From Enterococcus columbae (GTDB taxonomy: Bacteria > Bacillota > Bacilli > Lactobacillales > Enterococcaceae), in the NCBI GenBank assembly GCA_020742395.1, contig DYWZ01000018.1:19552-83551 (forward strand): DNA of 64,000 nucleotides, given 5' to 3'. Positions 1,630-9,247 of the stretch are shown here, piece by piece. How positions within the stretch are numbered: position 1 is the first letter of the stretch; each line of letters starts with the position of its first letter. The notes beneath the pieces were generated by a model. It saw nothing but the letters and a program-made list of their open reading frames with translations. It was not told the origin of the DNA and ran no database searches. The position numbers and the translations under genes are program-made.

Positions 1630-1773
1630 ATGAAAAAAATGGATTTAAAATGGAAAAAATACTCAGAGAAAGAATTAATAAGGGTTATTGGTGGGAAAAA
1701 TGCGAAAGAAAAAGGAAAACCTGCTTCAAATTTAGCTCAATGTGTGTTTTCTTTTTTTAGAAAATGTGAATAG
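1630..1773 (+). CDS. Bacteriocin-inducing pheromone precursor, EntF-like (leader MKKMDLKWKKYSEKELIRVIGG; mature KNAKEKGKPASNLAQCVFSFFRKCE)
   Basis: GG leader; mature 25-mer shares GKPASNL..CVFS.F.KC with enterocin induction factor EntF (recalled); directly upstream of HK and RR; GGAAGG RBS. Confidence 0.9.
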   Translation: MKKMDLKWKKYSEKELIRVIGGKNAKEKGKPASNLAQCVFSFFRKCE

Positions 1774-1810
1774 AGTCAATTTTTAAATAAAATTAGGGAG
1801 AGAACTTTAA

Positions 1811-3109
1811 TTGTTAATAATTGATACTAAGGCTTATTTATTAAGAATGTTGCTAGGAGAATTTATTTTTGTTTATTTTTTTTATAAAATAAATAATAAA
1901 ATACAAAATAAACTATACTGGTTTATGATTTTAATGGTACTAGTTGAATTTTTTACAGGTTTATTTGTTTGGATTACAGAGTATATACCGATTATTTTTG
2001 GATATTATATTTTAAAAAAATCAAAAATTGAAAAAACATTAGCTATAAATAAAGTTTTGGTATGTTCATTATTAACATCTGCTACATTTATAATTAGCTC
2101 TACTCTAATAGATAATTGGCCATCATCTTATCATAAAGTTGGTTTTAGCTTTGTTTTTCAAAATCTTGGGATAGATTATTTACTAGCATTTATATTTATT
2201 TATTTATATAAGAGATTTGATATAGAAAGAATAATAGAAAAATATAGTTCAACATTAACAGTATTTTTGGAAATATACATTGTTATTGTTATTGAATTTA
2301 TTAGCTATACTGCTCATAAACGAGAGATTTTCGATCAATTTGTACTAGGTATTTTAATATTTTTGGTGCTTCAAACCCTTTTTGTTTCAGTTTTGGTTAT
2401 TTGGTTGACTATAAAGCAAAAAGAAAAATATGAACAAAAGGTAAAAGATAAGGAACTGATTTATCTAAAAAAATATACCGATTCTTTAGAAAAAGATCAG
2501 GAACAATCAGCCAGATTTAGACATGATTATAAAAATTTACTTCTAAGCTTGAAGGAACGCGCTACCCTTCATCAAGATTTAGCATTGAAGGAACAAATAG
2601 AATCACTGGAACATTACTCCCAGCCTTATTTAACCGATAAATTTGCCTATCGTTATTTAAAAAATGTGAAAAATGAATATGTTAAAAGTTTATTACTATC
2701 AAAAATGTATGAGGCAAGCCAACAATATATTCACTGCACCTTTGAATGTCCTAATGTGATTCAAAACATACCGATGGATATCTTTGATTTTGTGAGGGTT
2801 CTAGGTATTTTAATTGATAATGCGCTAGAAGCTGCGGAAGAAAGTGAACAAAAAGAGCTAGCCATTGCCATTTATCAGGATAAAGAACAAATGGAAATCT
2901 CTATCATTAATAGCTGCAATCAAGCTAAAAAATCGATTAACCAATTAACACAAAAAGGGGTTACCACCAAAAAAGGGCATAGTGGCTTAGGTTTATCGAA
3001 TATAGAAGAAATTAATAGAAAAAATGAAAATATGTTTGTCAATTATCAAATGGAAGCAGAACAATTCATTGCCCATGTTGTTCTTATAGCAAAAGAGGAG
3101 GACTTATGA
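1811..3109 (+). CDS. AgrC/EntK-type (GHKL) sensor histidine kinase
   Basis: Polytopic N-terminus, FRHDYKNLL H-box, ILIDNALEAA N-box, TKKGHSGLGL G-box. Confidence 0.93.
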   Translation: MLIIDTKAYLLRMLLGEFIFVYFFYKINNKIQNKLYWFMILMVLVEFFTGLFVWITEYIPIIFGYYILKKSKIEKTLAINKVLVCSLLTSATFIISSTLIDNWPSSYHKVGFSFVFQNLGIDYLLAFIFIYLYKRFDIERIIEKYSSTLTVFLEIYIVIVIEFISYTAHKREIFDQFVLGILIFLVLQTLFVSVLVIWLTIKQKEKYEQKVKDKELIYLKKYTDSLEKDQEQSARFRHDYKNLLLSLKERATLHQDLALKEQIESLEHYSQPYLTDKFAYRYLKNVKNEYVKSLLLSKMYEASQQYIHCTFECPNVIQNIPMDIFDFVRVLGILIDNALEAAEESEQKELAIAIYQDKEQMEISIINSCNQAKKSINQLTQKGVTTKKGHSGLGLSNIEEINRKNENMFVNYQMEAEQFIAHVVLIAKEEDL

Positions 3110-3855
3110 AATACCCAATTATTTTATGCGAAGATGACCTTTTACAATTACATCAGTTAGAAAGAGTGATTGATAAATTTATACTTTTCCATGATGAAAT
3201 CTTTGAAGTCGTGTTATCTGCGCAAAAACCTTCAGAAGTGGAGACTTATTTAAAACAATTTCATCCCAAGCAAGGCATTTATTTTTTAGATGTAGATTTA
3301 AAAGCAGAGATGGATGGAATGGAATTAGCGCAAATGATTCGAAAACATGATGTTCAGGCTAAAATTATTTTTGTAACTACTCATGATGAAGTACTACCGA
3401 TTACCTTCAAAAGAAAACTAGAAGCATTAGGTTTTGTTCAAAAAGACCAAGATTATGATGAATACAAAAAAGAAATTGTCGAATTATTATTGTTAGCGCA
3501 AGAAAGAATTGATGCAGCGAAAGTTTCAAAAAATCAAGCCTTTGTATTTTCGATAGGTTCACAAACCTTTACTTTTGACATCAATGACATTTATTTTTTA
3601 GAAGCTTCTCCTATGCCGCATCGCTTATCTTTGATCACTAAAAATGGTCAGTATGAATTTTATGGTAAATTAACCGATTTTGAGGAGAAATACGAAGCGC
3701 TGACTAGAATTAATCGTTCATGTTTAGCCAATCTGAAAAATGTTCAAAAAACTGACTTTAAAGCAAAAGAAGTCTATTTCACTGAAGAGGTCCATCGAAG
3801 CTTTTCATCATCAAAAACCAAGTCGATTAAAGCGTTTCTGAATACCATGTTTTAG
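3106..3855 (+). CDS. LytTR-family response regulator (EntR/AgrA/BlpR-type)
   Basis: CEDD, FLDVDL and IIFVTTH receiver motifs; C-terminal LytTR domain (FYGKL, RINRSCLANL). Confidence 0.93.
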   Translation: MKYPIILCEDDLLQLHQLERVIDKFILFHDEIFEVVLSAQKPSEVETYLKQFHPKQGIYFLDVDLKAEMDGMELAQMIRKHDVQAKIIFVTTHDEVLPITFKRKLEALGFVQKDQDYDEYKKEIVELLLLAQERIDAAKVSKNQAFVFSIGSQTFTFDINDIYFLEASPMPHRLSLITKNGQYEFYGKLTDFEEKYEALTRINRSCLANLKNVQKTDFKAKEVYFTEEVHRSFSSSKTKSIKAFLNTMF

Positions 3856-3949: not shown

Positions 3950-4144
3950 TTTTTTTGAGCGAATTTTGTCATTTTCCTCTAAACCCATAAAAAATCTCCC
4001 CAAAAATATTCCTGAACACCCACAAATCTATTCTTGAACGAAAAACTCAGAGAATGATATCTCTTAAAAGAAAGATTTTAAGCAGTTTAAGAACGATTTC
4101 CCCACTCGCTCAATGACTATGCAATAATATGATTGTCAAAGAGA
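3950..4144. repeat. Copy 1 of a ~195-bp duplicated promoter module
   Basis: Near-identical to 5287-5480; contains TTCCTGAA (4009) and TTCTTGAA (4031), TAAAAGAA/TTTAAGAA (4065/4086), and -10 AATAAT at 4123. Confidence 0.85.
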
Positions 4145-4173
4145 CAATACTATAGATAATGGAGGATTATATT

Positions 4174-4404
4174 ATGAAAACAAGAGAATTATTAACAGAA
4201 AAACAAATGAAGAGAGTTGTAGGAGGAGGTCCTGCAAAGAATTTTATTTATGGAATGGGCTAAGGTGCGATGGGAGGTGCTGGTTTAGGAGCTGCAATAT
4301 GTGCCCCGACAGGAGTAGCAGCTGGAGCTTGTGCTGTAGTAGGTGGCTTTTATGGTATGGCGTTAGGAGCATTAGCAGCAGGAATTGATACGTTTAAAAA
4401 GTAG
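4174..4404 (+). pseudogene. Class IIb bacteriocin alpha peptide (lactacin F LafA-like) with in-frame TAA at 4261-4263
   Basis: GGAGG RBS; MKTRELLTEKQMKRVVGG leader, then GPAKNFIYGMG*GAMGGAGLGAAICAPTGVAAGACAVVGGFYGMALGALAAGIDTFKK; absent from the ORF track. Confidence 0.85.
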
Positions 4405-4847: not shown

Positions 4848-4884
4848 TCAAACTCCTTGCTACCATTCAAGGAGTTTGATTTTT
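4848..4884 (+). terminator. Terminator of the bacteriocin operon
   Basis: TCAAACTCCTTG / CAAGGAGTTTGA stem plus T5. Confidence 0.85.
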
Positions 4885-4887
4885 ATG

Positions 4888-5180
4888 GTGTACCAAGTAT
4901 GGTGCACTTTCTTTCTGGTGTAAGTACAGACACGGGTATTTACTACCAAGTATAACGAATCACAAGCCGACAGCATTAGTGTCTAAGGGTAGAAAGCAGT
5001 ATAGCAAAGTCTACAATCCTGCGAACAGAAAATGAAAACAGGCTAATGGTGGATGAGATTGCTTAATAAATCGAAGTCTTGAAGGTAAATATAAAAACAA
5101 GACAGGTCGTGTGACGAAAGAATTATATCTTACCTTGGGAGATTCAGATAGCATGAATAATTTTAAGTGCGTCTCTATCA
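4888..5180 (+). mobile_element. Degenerate 5' fragment (domain I, part of II) of a group IIC intron; no RT ORF
   Basis: Starts GTGTACCAAGTATGGTGCA 8 nt after a terminator stem; contains CTGGTGTAAGTACAG, GGATGAGATTGC and GAAAG..TCTTACCTTGGGAG motifs like those of IIC introns (recalled). Confidence 0.65.
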
Positions 5181-5286: not shown

Positions 5287-5480
5287 TTTTTTTGAGCGAA
5301 TTTTGGCAATTTTCCTCTAAATCCATAAAAACCCCCAAAAAGTATTCCTGAACACCCACAAATCTATTCTTGAATGAAATTTTCAAAGGACAGCATATCT
5401 TAAAAGAAGGATTTTATGCATTTTAAGAATGATTTTCCCACTCGCTCAATAACTATACAATAATATGATTGTCAACGAGA
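5287..5480. repeat. Copy 2 of the duplicated promoter module
   Basis: TTCCTGAA (5345), TTCTTGAA (5367), TAAAAGAA/TTTAAGAA (5401/5422), -10 AATAAT at 5459. Confidence 0.85.
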
Positions 5481-5505
5481 TAAATGTTTTGAAAGGAGAA
5501 CCAAA

Positions 5506-5628
5506 ATGGAAAAATATCAAAAATTAAATACCTATAAACTTGAAAGAGTTAATGGTGGAAACAATTTTTTACTAAATGCACTAAAAATCATACCTGTGCC
5601 AATTTTGTTTAGACCTAGAAAAAAATAA
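5506..5628 (+). CDS. Double-glycine peptide precursor MEKYQKLNTYKLERVNGG-NNFLLNALKIIPVPILFRPRKK (pheromone-like or antimicrobial)
   Basis: AAAGGAG RBS, canonical GG leader, downstream of promoter copy 2 and upstream of the exporter; below the ORF-track cutoff. Confidence 0.8.
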   Translation: MEKYQKLNTYKLERVNGGNNFLLNALKIIPVPILFRPRKK

Positions 5629-5734
5629 AGATTTTTGAAGGGAGTGATTACTATTTTTTATAAATTATTATCCATTATTAATCCTGGAATTAAATTTTGG
5701 TTTTAACAAATAAACTGTTTGAGGGAGACATGAA

Positions 5735-7888
5735 ATGAAATTCACTAAGAAACATTATAGACCACAAGTGGATATGCGTGATTGTGGCGTAGCTTCTCTA
5801 GCAATGATTTTTGGCTACTATGGTTCCTATTATTCCTTGGCAACACTAAGAGAAAAAGCCAAAACAAACTTGGAGGGTACCACCGCTTTAGGCTTAGTGA
5901 AAGTTGCTGAAGAATTGGGCTTTGAAACACAAGTCATTCAAGCGGACATGACATTGTTTGATGAGCCTGATATTCCTTATCCCTTTATTGCTCATGTTTT
6001 AAAAGAAGGTAAGTTACTCCATTATTATGTAGTTACAGGAGCAGATCAGCAATATATTTATATTGCTGATCCGGATCCTTTAGTTAAGATGACCAAGCTA
6101 ACTAGAGAAGCATTTGCTAAAGAGTGGTCAGGGGTTTCTTTATTTATGGCACCTACACCTGCATATCGACCACATAATGATAAAAAAGTAGGGCTTACGG
6201 CATTTATCCCTCTACTAACAAAACAAAAAGGATTAATTGCTAACATTGTACTGGCTACTTTACTTGTGACCATTATCAACATTACGGGTTCATATTATTT
6301 ACAATCGATTATTGATACCTATGTGCCTGATCAGATGAAAAATACTTTAGGAATTATTTCAATTGGTCTGTTAGTTGTTTATGTATTGCAACAAATTCTA
6401 TCTTATGGACAGGAATATTTGTTGATTATATTAGGACAGCGTTTATCTATTGATGTGATTTTATCCTATATCAAGCATGTTTTTCAATTACCTATGAATT
6501 TCTTTGCAACTAGAAGAACAGGAGAAATCATTTCTAGATTTAACGATGCAAATAATATTATTGATGCCTTAGCTAGTACGATTCTTTCTATCTTTTTAGA
6601 TGTATCGATTGTTTTAATCATTTCAGTCGTTTTATTCTTCCAAAGTTCGACGCTATTTTTTATTAGCTTATTGGCTTTACCGATTTATTCTGTCATTATT
6701 TTTGCTTTTATGAAGCCATTTGAAAAGATGAATAATGAAATGATGGAAGCTAATGCAATCCTTTCATCATCTATTATTGAAGATATTAATGGCATTGAAA
6801 CGATTAAATCTTTAACTAGTGAACATACTAGCTATCAAAAGGTAGATAGAGAATTTGTGTCATATCTAAAGAAGTCTTTCCGCTACGCTAAAACGGAAAG
6901 CATTCAAAAAGCATTGAAAAAGTTAGCGCAGCTACTCTTAAATGTTTTTGTATTATGGATGGGAGCTAGATTAGTGATGGATAATCAATTATCTATGGGG
7001 CAATTGATTACTTATAATACGCTACTTATCTATTTTACCAATCCATTAGAAAATATCATCAATTTACAAACCAAATTACAAACTGCTCACGTTGCCAATA
7101 ATCGTTTGAATGAAGTTTATCTTGTTAATTCAGAATTTGAAGATGAAAAAGCGATTAAAGAATTACCGGATACACCGTCAACGATTAGCTTTGAAAATGT
7201 AAGCTATAAATATGGTTATGGGAGAGACATTTTATCTGGAATTAATTTAGAAATTCCAATCTATAGTAAAGTTGCGATTGTTGGCATTTCTGGTTCAGGC
7301 AAAACTACCTTGGCTAAGATGATGGTTAACTTCTATGAAGCAAATACTGGAGAAGTGCGCTTAAATAGCACGAATATGAATCAAATAGATAAGACTGCCT
7401 TACGTCGTCATGTTAATTACTTACCGCAACAGCCTTATGTTTTCAATGGAACAATTCTAGAAAACTTACTATTGGGGGCTAAAGAGGGAACAACACAAGA
7501 AGATATTTTAAGAGCGGTAGAGATTGCTGAAATTCGTACGGATATTGAGAATATGCCCTTAAACTATCAAACAGAACTAACTTCTGATGGTGCTGGAATT
7601 TCTGGTGGACAGAAACAGAGAATTGCCTTAGCAAGAGCTTTACTCACTGATGCACCGATATTAATTTTGGACGAAGCAACGAGTAGTTTGGATATTCTAA
7701 CCGAGAAGAAAATTATTGATAATTTAATGAAACTAGACAAAACAATTATCTTTATTGCACATCGATTAACAATTGCAGAAAAATCAGAACAAGTGATTGT
7801 ACTTGATCAAGGAAAATTAATTGAACAAGGCACACACGAAGAGTTATTAGCTCATCAAGGCTTTTATTATGATTTAGTGAATTATTAG
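5735..7888 (+). CDS. Peptidase-containing ABC transporter (C39 + TMD + NBD), ComA/BlpA-like
   Basis: QVDMRDCG catalytic Cys, LLHYYVV His, GISGSGKT Walker A, ISGGQKQR, LDEATS. Confidence 0.95.
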   Translation: MKFTKKHYRPQVDMRDCGVASLAMIFGYYGSYYSLATLREKAKTNLEGTTALGLVKVAEELGFETQVIQADMTLFDEPDIPYPFIAHVLKEGKLLHYYVVTGADQQYIYIADPDPLVKMTKLTREAFAKEWSGVSLFMAPTPAYRPHNDKKVGLTAFIPLLTKQKGLIANIVLATLLVTIINITGSYYLQSIIDTYVPDQMKNTLGIISIGLLVVYVLQQILSYGQEYLLIILGQRLSIDVILSYIKHVFQLPMNFFATRRTGEIISRFNDANNIIDALASTILSIFLDVSIVLIISVVLFFQSSTLFFISLLALPIYSVIIFAFMKPFEKMNNEMMEANAILSSSIIEDINGIETIKSLTSEHTSYQKVDREFVSYLKKSFRYAKTESIQKALKKLAQLLLNVFVLWMGARLVMDNQLSMGQLITYNTLLIYFTNPLENIINLQTKLQTAHVANNRLNEVYLVNSEFEDEKAIKELPDTPSTISFENVSYKYGYGRDILSGINLEIPIYSKVAIVGISGSGKTTLAKMMVNFYEANTGEVRLNSTNMNQIDKTALRRHVNYLPQQPYVFNGTILENLLLGAKEGTTQEDILRAVEIAEIRTDIENMPLNYQTELTSDGAGISGGQKQRIALARALLTDAPILILDEATSSLDILTEKKIIDNLMKLDKTIIFIAHRLTIAEKSEQVIVLDQGKLIEQGTHEELLAHQGFYYDLVNY

Positions 7889-7900
7889 GAGGAAAAATAC

Positions 7901-9247
7901 TTGGATCCACGCTATTTTGAAAGTGCCGAATTTTATCATCGTCGGTATGATAATTTTGCTAGCAAAATTATTATCCCTACCTTTTGCCTCTTTTGCTTTC
8001 TAGTAGTTTTTGCAATCTTTGCCACAAAAGAAGTCGTGGTATCTTCTACTGGTAGCATTGAAGCCTATCGTACAATTACTAATATTCAATCAACTAGTAG
8101 TAACAAAATCATTCTTAATCATCTGAAAGAAAATAAGCAAGTTAAAAAAGGCGATTTATTATTAGAATATCAGGGAAAGGAAGGCGAAATTCAGCTTTCC
8201 ACCTTACAATTGCAACAAAAACAAATAAAAGAACAAATCGATCAAATACAAATTTTATTAGATAGTTTGAATAAAGAAAAAAATTTATTTGAAGATAATG
8301 ATGCATTTGGCTATAAGCAAACCTACTTAGATTATGTTCAGCAAGTAGAGACTATTAAAAAGAGTGTTCAGCAACAAAATGCTAATATTCAAGCACAAAA
8401 TATCTCTGCAAGTCAGGCAAAGCAGGCTATTCAAAACGCTATGAATGAATTGCAAAACGAACTCAATGATTACCAGCAAGCTAAACAAGCGATACTTAAT
8501 CAAACAGCGTTAAATAAGCAAAATGCTGCATATACTTTATATCAAAGTTATCATCAACAAATGGGACAAGAAAATGCTGATAGTATCAAACAGCAGGTAT
8601 TATCACAACTTGATAGTCAAATTGCAAGTCTTGAGAATAGTTTATCAGGATATAAAATTCAATATGCTTCCTCAGGAGTTCAGCAAGCAGCGAGTGATAC
8701 ATTTGCTAATCAATCAGCTTCATTGAAAGCACAAACTATTGCAAAAACGGAGCAAGAAAAACAATCCTTACAAAAACAGTTAACCGAAGTAGAGAATAAT
8801 CTACAATTACAACAGCAACAAGGAAAATTAAATCGGATTTACGCGCAGACTGGTGGAGTTTTACATATTGTGGATACTGATAATGAATTTGTATCACCGG
8901 GAACAGTCATTGCGCAATTATATCCTATTATTACAAAAGTGAAAAGGATTAAACTAGTGTCTTATATTTCTGCTAGAGATGTCACCCATATTCAAAAAGG
9001 AATGAAGATGCGCTTTACAGCCTATGATAGTGCTAAAGACAAATTAGTATTAGAAGCAAAGGTACAAAGTATAGATACTAGTGCTACTAGAACGAAACAA
9101 GGAAACTATTTTAAAGTAGAATCATTGGTTTCCGTCAATGAGTTACAAGCAAAACAGTTATCTTATGGTTTAGAGGGGAGAGTTACACTTATTACACATA
9201 CAACCACCTATCTGAACTATTTTTTAGATAAAATATTTAATTTGTAG
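7901..9247 (+). CDS. Bacteriocin secretion accessory protein (ComB/BlpB/MesE, HlyD-like)
   Basis: ESAEFY.RRY.NF N-terminus, IQSTSSNKII, long coiled coil. Confidence 0.92.
   Translation: MDPRYFESAEFYHRRYDNFASKIIIPTFCLFCFLVVFAIFATKEVVVSSTGSIEAYRTITNIQSTSSNKIILNHLKENKQVKKGDLLLEYQGKEGEIQLSTLQLQQKQIKEQIDQIQILLDSLNKEKNLFEDNDAFGYKQTYLDYVQQVETIKKSVQQQNANIQAQNISASQAKQAIQNAMNELQNELNDYQQAKQAILNQTALNKQNAAYTLYQSYHQQMGQENADSIKQQVLSQLDSQIASLENSLSGYKIQYASSGVQQAASDTFANQSASLKAQTIAKTEQEKQSLQKQLTEVENNLQLQQQQGKLNRIYAQTGGVLHIVDTDNEFVSPGTVIAQLYPIITKVKRIKLVSYISARDVTHIQKGMKMRFTAYDSAKDKLVLEAKVQSIDTSATRTKQGNYFKVESLVSVNELQAKQLSYGLEGRVTLITHTTTYLNYFLDKIFNL

Follow-up and report, generated by a model that had tools for sequence, protein, structure and literature searches.

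A short double-glycine peptide gene 5' of the C39 exporter in a bacteriocin island of the Enterococcus cecorum group, and the decapitated gene behind it

The peptide gene and its locus

We analysed a 64-kb stretch of Enterococcus DNA (hereafter the window), and in it an open reading frame (ORF) at positions 5506 to 5628, which an earlier note on this DNA had described as an orphan peptide gene at the head of an exporter operon. The ORF is a real gene for a peptide that has a double-glycine (GG) secretion leader, and it lies in a bacteriocin island of the Enterococcus cecorum group. Its parts are the following.

5492-5498, + strand: Shine-Dalgarno (SD) sequence AAAGGAG, 7 nt 5' of the ATG
5506-5628, + strand: the ORF, start ATG 5506, stop TAA 5626-5628, 40 residues, product MEKYQKLNTYKLERVNGG followed by NNFLLNALKIIPVPILFRPRKK
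5506-5559, + strand: double-glycine leader MEKYQKLNTYKLERVNGG, 18 codons, ending in LERVNGG
5560-5628, + strand: mature 22-mer NNFLLNALKIIPVPILFRPRKK plus the TAA stop

The leader has hydrophobic residues at V(-4), L(-7), L(-12) and Y(-15), the positions which govern secretion via ComAB/BlpAB-type exporters (PMC7018657). Double-glycine leaders have about 15 to 30 residues, end in GG, GA or GS, carry hydrophobic residues at these four positions and belong to genes with a C39 exporter nearby, and the ORF and its product have all of these features. In model searches, Pfam PF10439 covered only the leader (residues 1-20) with a sub-threshold score (13.4 bits; cut-off, 27.1), and there was no above-threshold match of the leader to either of the curated models TIGR01847 and PF10439. 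The mature 22-mer contains three Lys and two Arg (charge +4.8 at pH 7; grand average of hydropathy [GRAVY], 0.20) and three Pro, and it has neither Cys nor Gly and therefore no GxxxG motif; its computed monoisotopic mass is 2603.6 Da. AlphaFold2 modelled the prepeptide with moderate confidence (mean predicted local distance difference test [pLDDT], 69.6) as a helix to residue 28, that is over mature residues 1-10 (pLDDT about 70), followed by a coil over PVPILFRPRKK. The N-terminal half of the 22-mer is weakly amphipathic, with a hydrophobic moment, muH(1-11), of 0.52, which 7.5% of shuffled sequences reached. The earlier note had read the ORF as 40 codons with a strong ribosome-binding site and a GG leader, and its product as a 22-mer with a net charge of +5, three Pro, no Cys and no GxxxG, unlike the neighbouring bacteriocins; all of this agrees with the present data, and the neighbouring bacteriocins are Gly-rich.

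The genes of the locus stand in the order EntF-type peptide, kinase and regulator, promoter module, lactacin-F-like pair with an immunity gene, terminator (about 4848-4908), second promoter module, ORF, C39 exporter, LcnD-type protein, PedC/BrcD-like thioredoxin-fold protein and an immunity-plus-bacteriocin cassette. The features on which the following argument draws are listed here.

1630-1773, + strand: EntF-family induction peptide gene (NCBIfam NF033383, E 6.9e-19; Pfam DUF5841, E 2.1e-13)
1811-3109 and 3106-3855, + strand: HPK10-type histidine kinase and LytTR response regulator (PF14501, PF04397, PF00072)
5287-5483, + strand: second copy of the promoter module (repeat families D1 and D4), 85% identical to positions 3991-4147 of the first copy
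5404-5435, + strand: two 12-nt direct repeats, AAGAAGGATTTT and AAGAATGATTTT, with starts 21 bp apart, the presumed binding site of the LytTR regulator
5735-7888, + strand: peptidase-C39 ATP-binding cassette (ABC) exporter, a peptidase-containing ABC transporter (PCAT) (PF03412, E 9.8e-42; PF00664; PF00005)
7901-9247, + strand: LcnD/ComB-type accessory protein (PF13437; LcnD and ComB_N families on orthologues)

The first copy of the promoter module, at 3950-4147, precedes the lactacin-F-like pair. In a pattern search, the direct-repeat pattern occurred at two sites in the 64 kb (4068-4099 and 5404-5435) against 0.01 expected, and a -10 element, TACAAT, is predicted at 5456-5461. The interval between the ORF and the exporter contained no terminator, attenuator or stable structure (fold z-score -0.15) and no Rfam family. 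With a regulated promoter on its 5' side and no terminator before the exporter at 5735, the ORF would be the first cistron of an inducible exporter transcript, co-transcribed with the C39 exporter, in keeping with the place at the head of the exporter operon that had been assigned to it. Control of this copy by a ComR-type regulator was considered and rejected, since the window has no ComR-like gene and no ComR-box beyond chance.

Three side observations concern this region. In some sister loci (L002, L029 and L031), the boxes before the peptide gene are the variant AAGAAAGATTTTAAGCAGTTTAAGAACGATTT that the window has, letter for letter, before its bacteriocin operon (4068-4099), and comparison of window 5400-5440 with these loci points to gene conversion between the two copies of the promoter. 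The lactacin-F-like alpha gene of the window (4159-4404) has an in-frame stop at 4261-4263; its orthologues on the E. cecorum plasmid pEC67 and in L016 are intact (81 residues, containing NFIYGMGQGAMGGASLGAAICAP). Between the terminator of the bacteriocin operon and the second promoter module, positions 4969-5129 matched the Rfam family group-II-D1D4-3 with 31.2 bits (gathering score, 32; E 5.6e-4) and may be a fragment of a group II intron.

A headless peptide gene between the ORF and the exporter

The 106-nt 'spacer' on the 3' side of the ORF is the decapitated mature part of another peptide gene, P0008. Past the TAA of the ORF, the next 25 codons of the same frame are open (RPRKK, stop, RFLKGVITIFYKLLSIINPGIKFWF, stop; 5629-5706), and this open frame is present in 14 of the 15 haplotypes. 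A search with the read-through sequence recovered P0008 itself, a separate 37-residue GG peptide (leader MKKYSKLSSTSLASIHGG, mature part TTIFYKLLSIINPGIKFWF) indexed in 68 blocks. The interval is composed as follows.

5629-5646, + strand: 18-nt junction, in frame RFLKGV, with an SD-like GAAGGGAG (5637-5644) that has no usable start codon
5647-5706, + strand: fossil of the mature part of P0008, ITIFYKLLSIINPGIKFWF plus stop, without start codon or leader, in frame with the ORF
5707-5734, + strand: spacer with the exporter SD GAGGGAG (5721-5727), in a layout identical to that between P0008 and the exporter of the plasmid-borne loci described below as type C

Window positions 5649-5740, which correspond to the stretch between mature codon 1 of P0008 and the start of the exporter gene, are 97.8% identical to the type C locus L032. 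The SD and leader of the ORF share 70.6% DNA identity with those of P0008, and the 22-mer has no counterpart there; therefore, the break lies within 3 nt of the GG cleavage site. In-frame substitutions in the fossil stretch number about two synonymous and eight non-synonymous, as expected for a fossil.

Other readings of this interval were tried and rejected or found to be unsupported. A tiny spacer ORF (VITIFYKLLSIINPGIKFWF, GTG at 5644) has ATA as its start in L002 and ATG in L031, its start lies only 2 nt from the SD core, and its substitutions are the same two to eight. Translation into the fossil by read-through or by slippage at the A7 run was also rejected, as +1 and -1 slips miss the fossil frame and nothing supported read-through of the TAA. 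Finally, the 22-mer might be a tandem-duplicated and diverged mature part of P0008, but the ungapped similarity reached p = 0.027 at offset 0 only and p = 0.38 across offsets.

Sister loci, variants and the alpha2/beta2 pair

Within its genus, four of eight genomes encode the ORF peptide, and a survey of 53 Lactobacillales genomes at greater distance found it in none. The carriers with a name comprise E. cecorum and Candidatus Enterococcus stercoripullorum, together with two metagenome-assembled genomes from chicken gut. Plasmid pEC67 (CP144497.1) carries a homologue with 92.7% DNA identity (XBG87348.1), which is labelled 'hypothetical protein' by the Prokaryotic Genome Annotation Pipeline (PGAP) in GenBank. 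The peptide also occurs in several hundred metagenome contigs, with the same synteny in more than 200 metagenome blocks, and 229 blocks are indexed for the most frequent allele by itself; a metagenome scan for relatives yielded one additional locus. Some 27 protein variants have been recorded, from chromosomes, pEC67 and chicken-gut metagenomes, and the 40-codon core is intact in each of them. They vary at mature positions 1, 5, 6, 12, 13, 15, 17, 18, 19 and 22, and the 12-residue core ALKIIP.PILF is nearly invariant. Conservation, which had been named as a check on the gene, was thus seen across these intact and syntenic variants and was restricted to the E. cecorum group. Short-word blastn of the 22-mer DNA against all 39 compared loci (denoted by L numbers) gave poly-A matches only and hence no origin for it, and none of the sequences of the 22-mer, P0008, alpha2 and beta2 (see below) was found in the literature.

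The loci fall into three architectures. Type A (the window, pEC67 and many contigs) has the EntF-type peptide, kinase and regulator, bacteriocins, the LytTR promoter, the ORF plus fossil, and the exporter; the SD, ATG and promoter of the ORF are intact in all type A loci. Type C loci are plasmids with Rep3, resolvase and relaxase genes in which the kinase module is replaced by a ComR-like (ComR_TPR-family) regulator. In L032 (6754-8114) and also in L033 to L039, the ComR_TPR gene ends in a perfect palindrome, GTGACATTAATGTCA, which resembles a ComR-box and is followed by a T-run and TATAAT. Downstream are a ComS-like small ORF (MKGRNKLKKKSYLPNKYLLFFIFDVFIWFTI), a 73-residue ORF, an intact P0008 and, 28 nt further, the same C39 exporter. 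By its gene content, type C appears to be an rtg-like, ComR-driven exporter operon in Enterococcus. Type B, on the E. cecorum chromosome, has both regulator modules and no C39 exporter. Its peptide gene (L009, 9621-10000, minus strand; L020, 7698-8077) has no SD, as the 5' end of the ORF is swapped at the ATG for the leader start of another bacteriocin (MIMEEKYQKLN) without the SD of the latter. The fossil of type B is followed by a 47-residue membrane ORF, MNIIHKELFIALIYLVSLLTTFYFIKDKKKRKITIATLTMIYLMRFI, which uses the SD and ATG that are those of the exporter in type A.

Contig L030 (672-1070) combines a type A promoter, a 10-nt deletion which frameshifts the leader, and the 47-residue ORF; it looks like an intermediate or recombinant of types A and B, although its coverage is 1.7x and an assembly error is possible. 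The 47-residue ORF was considered as the cognate immunity gene and rejected, because it occurs only behind the peptide plus fossil in these derived arrangements (type B and L030) and is absent from the window. From the positions of the breaks, gene starts and the boundary between leader and mature part appear to serve as recombination joints in these islands. The most parsimonious order of events would be a C-like locus, then A, then B, because a complete gene becoming a fossil is simpler than the reverse. Among type A loci (window 5506-6046), silent-site changes numbered 5 over 24 sites in the ORF and 40 over 68 in the first 312 nt of the exporter, that is about three times fewer per site in the ORF; this suggests that the peptide-plus-fossil cassette is younger than the adjoining exporter alleles, and it fits the spread of a young cassette across older exporter alleles.

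In every plasmid-type locus, two further GG peptide genes, alpha2 and beta2, stand directly 3' of the LcnD gene (L016, 11845-12099; L019, 16066-16317). They are absent from the window, which has the PedC/BrcD-like thioredoxin-fold gene at this position. Alpha2 (leader MNKFKRINESELQNINGG, mature part RNDFIQGILDGLRLSRFVKRKK; WP_171300933.1) is annotated as 'bacteriocin' through its leader only, which passes TIGR01847, and beta2 (leader MDKFKKLEEKQLYSIHGG, mature part SSLGYKVGKAIGFMYGIIFG) is the product of an adjoining 38-residue gene and has repeated GxxxG. Both are 95-100% conserved and confined to this clade, and together they may be an unusually small two-peptide bacteriocin; no characterisation of them was found in the literature. 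The mature parts compare as follows.

ORF peptide: 22 residues, charge +4.8, GRAVY 0.20
alpha2: 22 residues, charge +4.8, GRAVY -0.69
P0008: 19 residues, charge +1.4, GRAVY 0.86
beta2: 20 residues, charge +1.5, GRAVY 0.84

Like the ORF, alpha2 encodes a prepeptide of 18 + 22 = 40 residues and ends in RKK-TAA; it is followed by an SD and a short hydrophobic GG peptide, so that the order and physico-chemistry of the pair match those of the ORF and its fossil. The leaders of P0008 and beta2 share 10 of 18 residues, and both end in SIHGG. The mature 22-mer is weakly similar to mature alpha2 (shuffle p = 0.0045), with an overall identity of about 30%, and BLASTP of the ORF against alpha2 aligns chiefly the leaders. 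The two tandems differ in that alpha2 and beta2 follow the LcnD gene, are both intact and have GxxxG, whereas the ORF peptide has no Gly and its partner is headless. P0008, for its part, resembles the ORF in standing directly 5' of the same exporter and in its homologous SD and leader, and it differs in being hydrophobic, in its 19 residues and in its ComR-box promoter; the mature parts of the two are not significantly similar. The ORF plus fossil appears to be a copy of an alpha-beta tandem that has decayed. The earlier note had called the peptide an orphan and had missed the headless second GG peptide gene; because the spacer is a headless P0008 and sister loci hold alpha2 with a hydrophobic partner, the orphan state most likely reflects a lost partner.

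Function of the peptide and comparison with known systems

The explanation which we favour, at close to an even chance, is that the ORF encodes a real, inducible, exporter-dependent GG peptide, a bacteriocin-type cargo that has lost its hydrophobic partner. The EntF-type peptide would activate the kinase and the LytTR regulator, and transcription would begin about 35 nt 5' of the ORF. The 40-residue prepeptide would be translated, and the C39 exporter would cleave it after Gly18 and export the 22-residue peptide, whose N-terminal half is hydrophobic and predicted to be helical, whose tail is cationic and rich in Pro, and which would be cargo rather than the signal of the system. Most likely it is a small, unmodified, membrane-active peptide of the bacteriocin type, and among the roles suggested in the earlier note the membrane-active, PlnA-like one comes closest to this. 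It would once have been the cationic 'alpha' part of an alpha/beta unit, with a P0008-type hydrophobic partner whose gene was decapitated by the recombination that set the cassette before the exporter (the direction of this event is our inference), and by itself it might be weak or inactive. The case for a function of the ORF rests on the design of promoter, SD, leader and exporter, on a reading frame that is intact throughout and on the parallel with alpha2.

Several points speak against this explanation. The peptide has no Pfam model above threshold, no NCBIfam family at E <= 1 and no PDB match, and a profile search of 1.84 billion representative proteins recovered only its own cluster plus a spurious repeat protein, with no relatives outside the clade. 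Two-peptide bacteriocins of class IIb have GxxxG (or AxxxA/SxxxS) in both peptides; Gly is missing from the 22-mer and occurs once in P0008. There is no dedicated immunity gene directly 3' of the ORF, where the window has the exporter gene. The resemblance to alpha2 comes mostly from N-x-F and the RKK tail, and mature residue 18 switches among R, G and I across variants. Type B has lost the SD and the exporter, and L030 the leader frame. Finally, the ORF has accumulated five synonymous and nine non-synonymous changes, a ratio of non-synonymous to synonymous rates (dN/dS) of about 0.49 that, with 14 events, is inseparable from neutral. In the first 312 nt of the exporter there are 40 synonymous and three non-synonymous changes (dN/dS about 0.02; ORF versus exporter, Fisher p = 3.6e-5). 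With a near-neutral ORF, conservation is therefore no proof of function.

The relaxed rate, the lack of any homologue or family elsewhere and the decay seen in type B and L030 would fit a functionless by-product of recombination, in which a bacteriocin-type promoter, SD and leader became fused to 22 codons that are open by chance, the product perhaps being exported while drifting. The ORF always travels with the fossil and therefore sits at a recombination scar, the window locus is itself decaying, as the in-frame stop in its lactacin-F-like gene shows, and a 22-codon open stretch arises by chance with a probability of about 0.15 in such AT-rich DNA, as estimated from base composition. Nevertheless, all of the approximately 27 variants retain the full 40-codon frame, the core ALKIIP.PILF is nearly invariant, and the SD, ATG and promoter are intact across type A. 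The length, charge and RKK end are those of alpha2, with the similarity given above, and there is the weak N-terminal amphipathicity. We regard this relic as a tentative alternative, clearly behind the favoured explanation and ahead of those that follow.

A second signal of the kind of competence-stimulating peptide (CSP), SilCR or BlpC is unlikely. Such a peptide would address a kinase elsewhere in the genome, or other species as cross-talk or a jammer, or would act on the local kinase as an auxiliary inducer or as an antagonist. Its size of 22 residues and cationic RKK tail, to which the CSP resemblance noted earlier is confined and which recall SilCR (17 residues, ending in ARKK; PMC4162386), speak for it, as do the membership of the ORF in a conserved core beside the exporter, while the downstream bacteriocin cargo varies between loci, and the lack of an attached immunity gene in type A loci. 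On the other hand, the peptide matched neither the ComC model (NF033214) nor the EntF model (NF033383) nor any other family, and its tail undergoes the radical R/G/I change under relaxed dN/dS. CSP, BlpC and SilCR go with a kinase and regulator that have no other ligand; here, the window and pEC67 have a single kinase each, encoded behind an EntF-family peptide that is its canonical ligand, and neither the window nor the self-contained plasmid locus has a second kinase or regulator. The earlier note had likewise counted one kinase and assigned it an EntF-type ligand, which holds within the 64-kb window, where the HPK10 kinase and the LytTR regulator are the sole copies and the ligand gene has the NF033383 match listed above.

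Variation at the local kinase also bears on its possible ligands. Across the loci, at least five pherotypes of the EntF-type peptide were distinguished. In a comparison of window 1630-3109 with L009, L019, L024 and L029, the first 200 residues of the kinase, where alignable without gaps, were 56-74% identical and the catalytic half 90-93%, so that the EntF-type peptide and the sensor half of the kinase appear to be a classic case of pherotype diversification. The 22-mer stays identical at 19-21 of 22 residues, and the same allele is found with different pherotypes. The lack of co-variation of the 22-mer with the sensor half or the pherotype argues against a role as ligand at the local kinase, and also against the suggestion that it is an antagonist there. 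On balance, a small exported peptide of the bacteriocin type is a more probable identity for the ORF product than a second pheromone.

Two narrower possibilities are improbable to about the same degree. The 22-mer and the 19-residue P0008 peptide could be one two-peptide unit that has been split, with type A making the cationic half and the type C plasmids the hydrophobic half; if so, activity would arise only where both carriers or elements meet, and the unit would be a cross-complemented, population-level bacteriocin. The other is an interspecies signal or jammer without a receptor of its own. Very improbable is a regulatory upstream ORF or mRNA element, whose translation or 5' fold would tune the exporter with the peptide being irrelevant: the ORF does lie in the 5' part of the exporter transcript before a highly conserved 106-nt stretch, but the P0008 fossil and its recent origin account for that conservation, the fold z-score, the missing terminator or attenuator and the absent Rfam match give no sign of such an element, and the 106-nt gap counts against translational coupling, as does the canonical GG leader, which would be superfluous. 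The remainder of our expectation goes to something else.

The ORF peptide is a new, lineage-restricted double-glycine peptide of a known class and not a new kind of system. With it, the bacteriocin islands of E. cecorum, a commensal of the chicken gut that can also act as an opportunistic pathogen of poultry, have one more uncharacterised GG peptide, and such peptides may affect competition in the gut. Four very short peptides (22, 19, 22 and 20 residues), cheap to synthesise, are attached to the exporter core of these islands. Of more use is the evolutionary result: one and the same exporter core stands behind two quorum-sensing front ends, EntF peptide/kinase/LytTR and ComR-like/ComS-like, and their exchange took the head off a peptide gene with precision, a scar that can be dated. 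This also calls for caution, since what looks like a 'conserved spacer' or an 'orphan' peptide in loci of this kind may be left over from a pair.

Compared with known systems, the locus departs from class IIb, which has two adjacent intact GG-peptide genes; here, the second is a fossil without start codon or leader, and because GxxxG is absent from both the 22-mer and P0008, the two peptides do not fall into this class. Plantaricin A (PlnA) and carnobacteriocin B2 (CbnB2) are cationic, partly helical GG-leader peptides that are exported by C39 transporters within a three-component bacteriocin regulon. PlnA is encoded directly 5' of its kinase and acts as inducer, and CbnB2 is a 48-residue pediocin-like bacteriocin with an immunity gene. 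Unlike the PlnA gene, the ORF is not the first cistron of a kinase-regulator operon, a place taken by the EntF-type gene at 1630-1773, and unlike CbnB2 the ORF product is no pediocin-like 48-residue peptide and has no immunity gene.

SilCR of the Streptococcus pyogenes sil locus is made as a 41-residue GG prepeptide with a short mature part, and it is encoded on one mRNA with its ABC exporter genes behind a promoter whose two direct repeats are bound by a LytTR regulator (PMC4162386). The ORF peptide shares with it the GG prepeptide, the cationic RKK tail and, by prediction, the co-transcription with the exporter and the direct-repeat LytTR promoter. It differs in that SilCR is the sole pheromone of its locus and the ligand of SilB, a role filled here by the EntF-type peptide, and there is no sequence homology between the two. 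The pneumococcal rtg GG peptides (RtgG, RtgT and RtgW) are short and of unknown function; they are regulated together with a dedicated C39 exporter, which secretes them, their locus is mosaic and often decayed, and they are suspected by the authors to be bacteriocins (PMC7018657). The island of the window likewise has short GG peptides beside a dedicated C39 exporter in a mosaic, decaying locus. The rtg locus differs from it in being controlled by Rgg/SHP (in which the type C loci, and not the window, resemble it), in a special N-terminal leader motif and in having mostly immunity-like genes downstream. By analogy, SilCR and the rtg peptides appear to be the closest functional counterparts of the ORF peptide.

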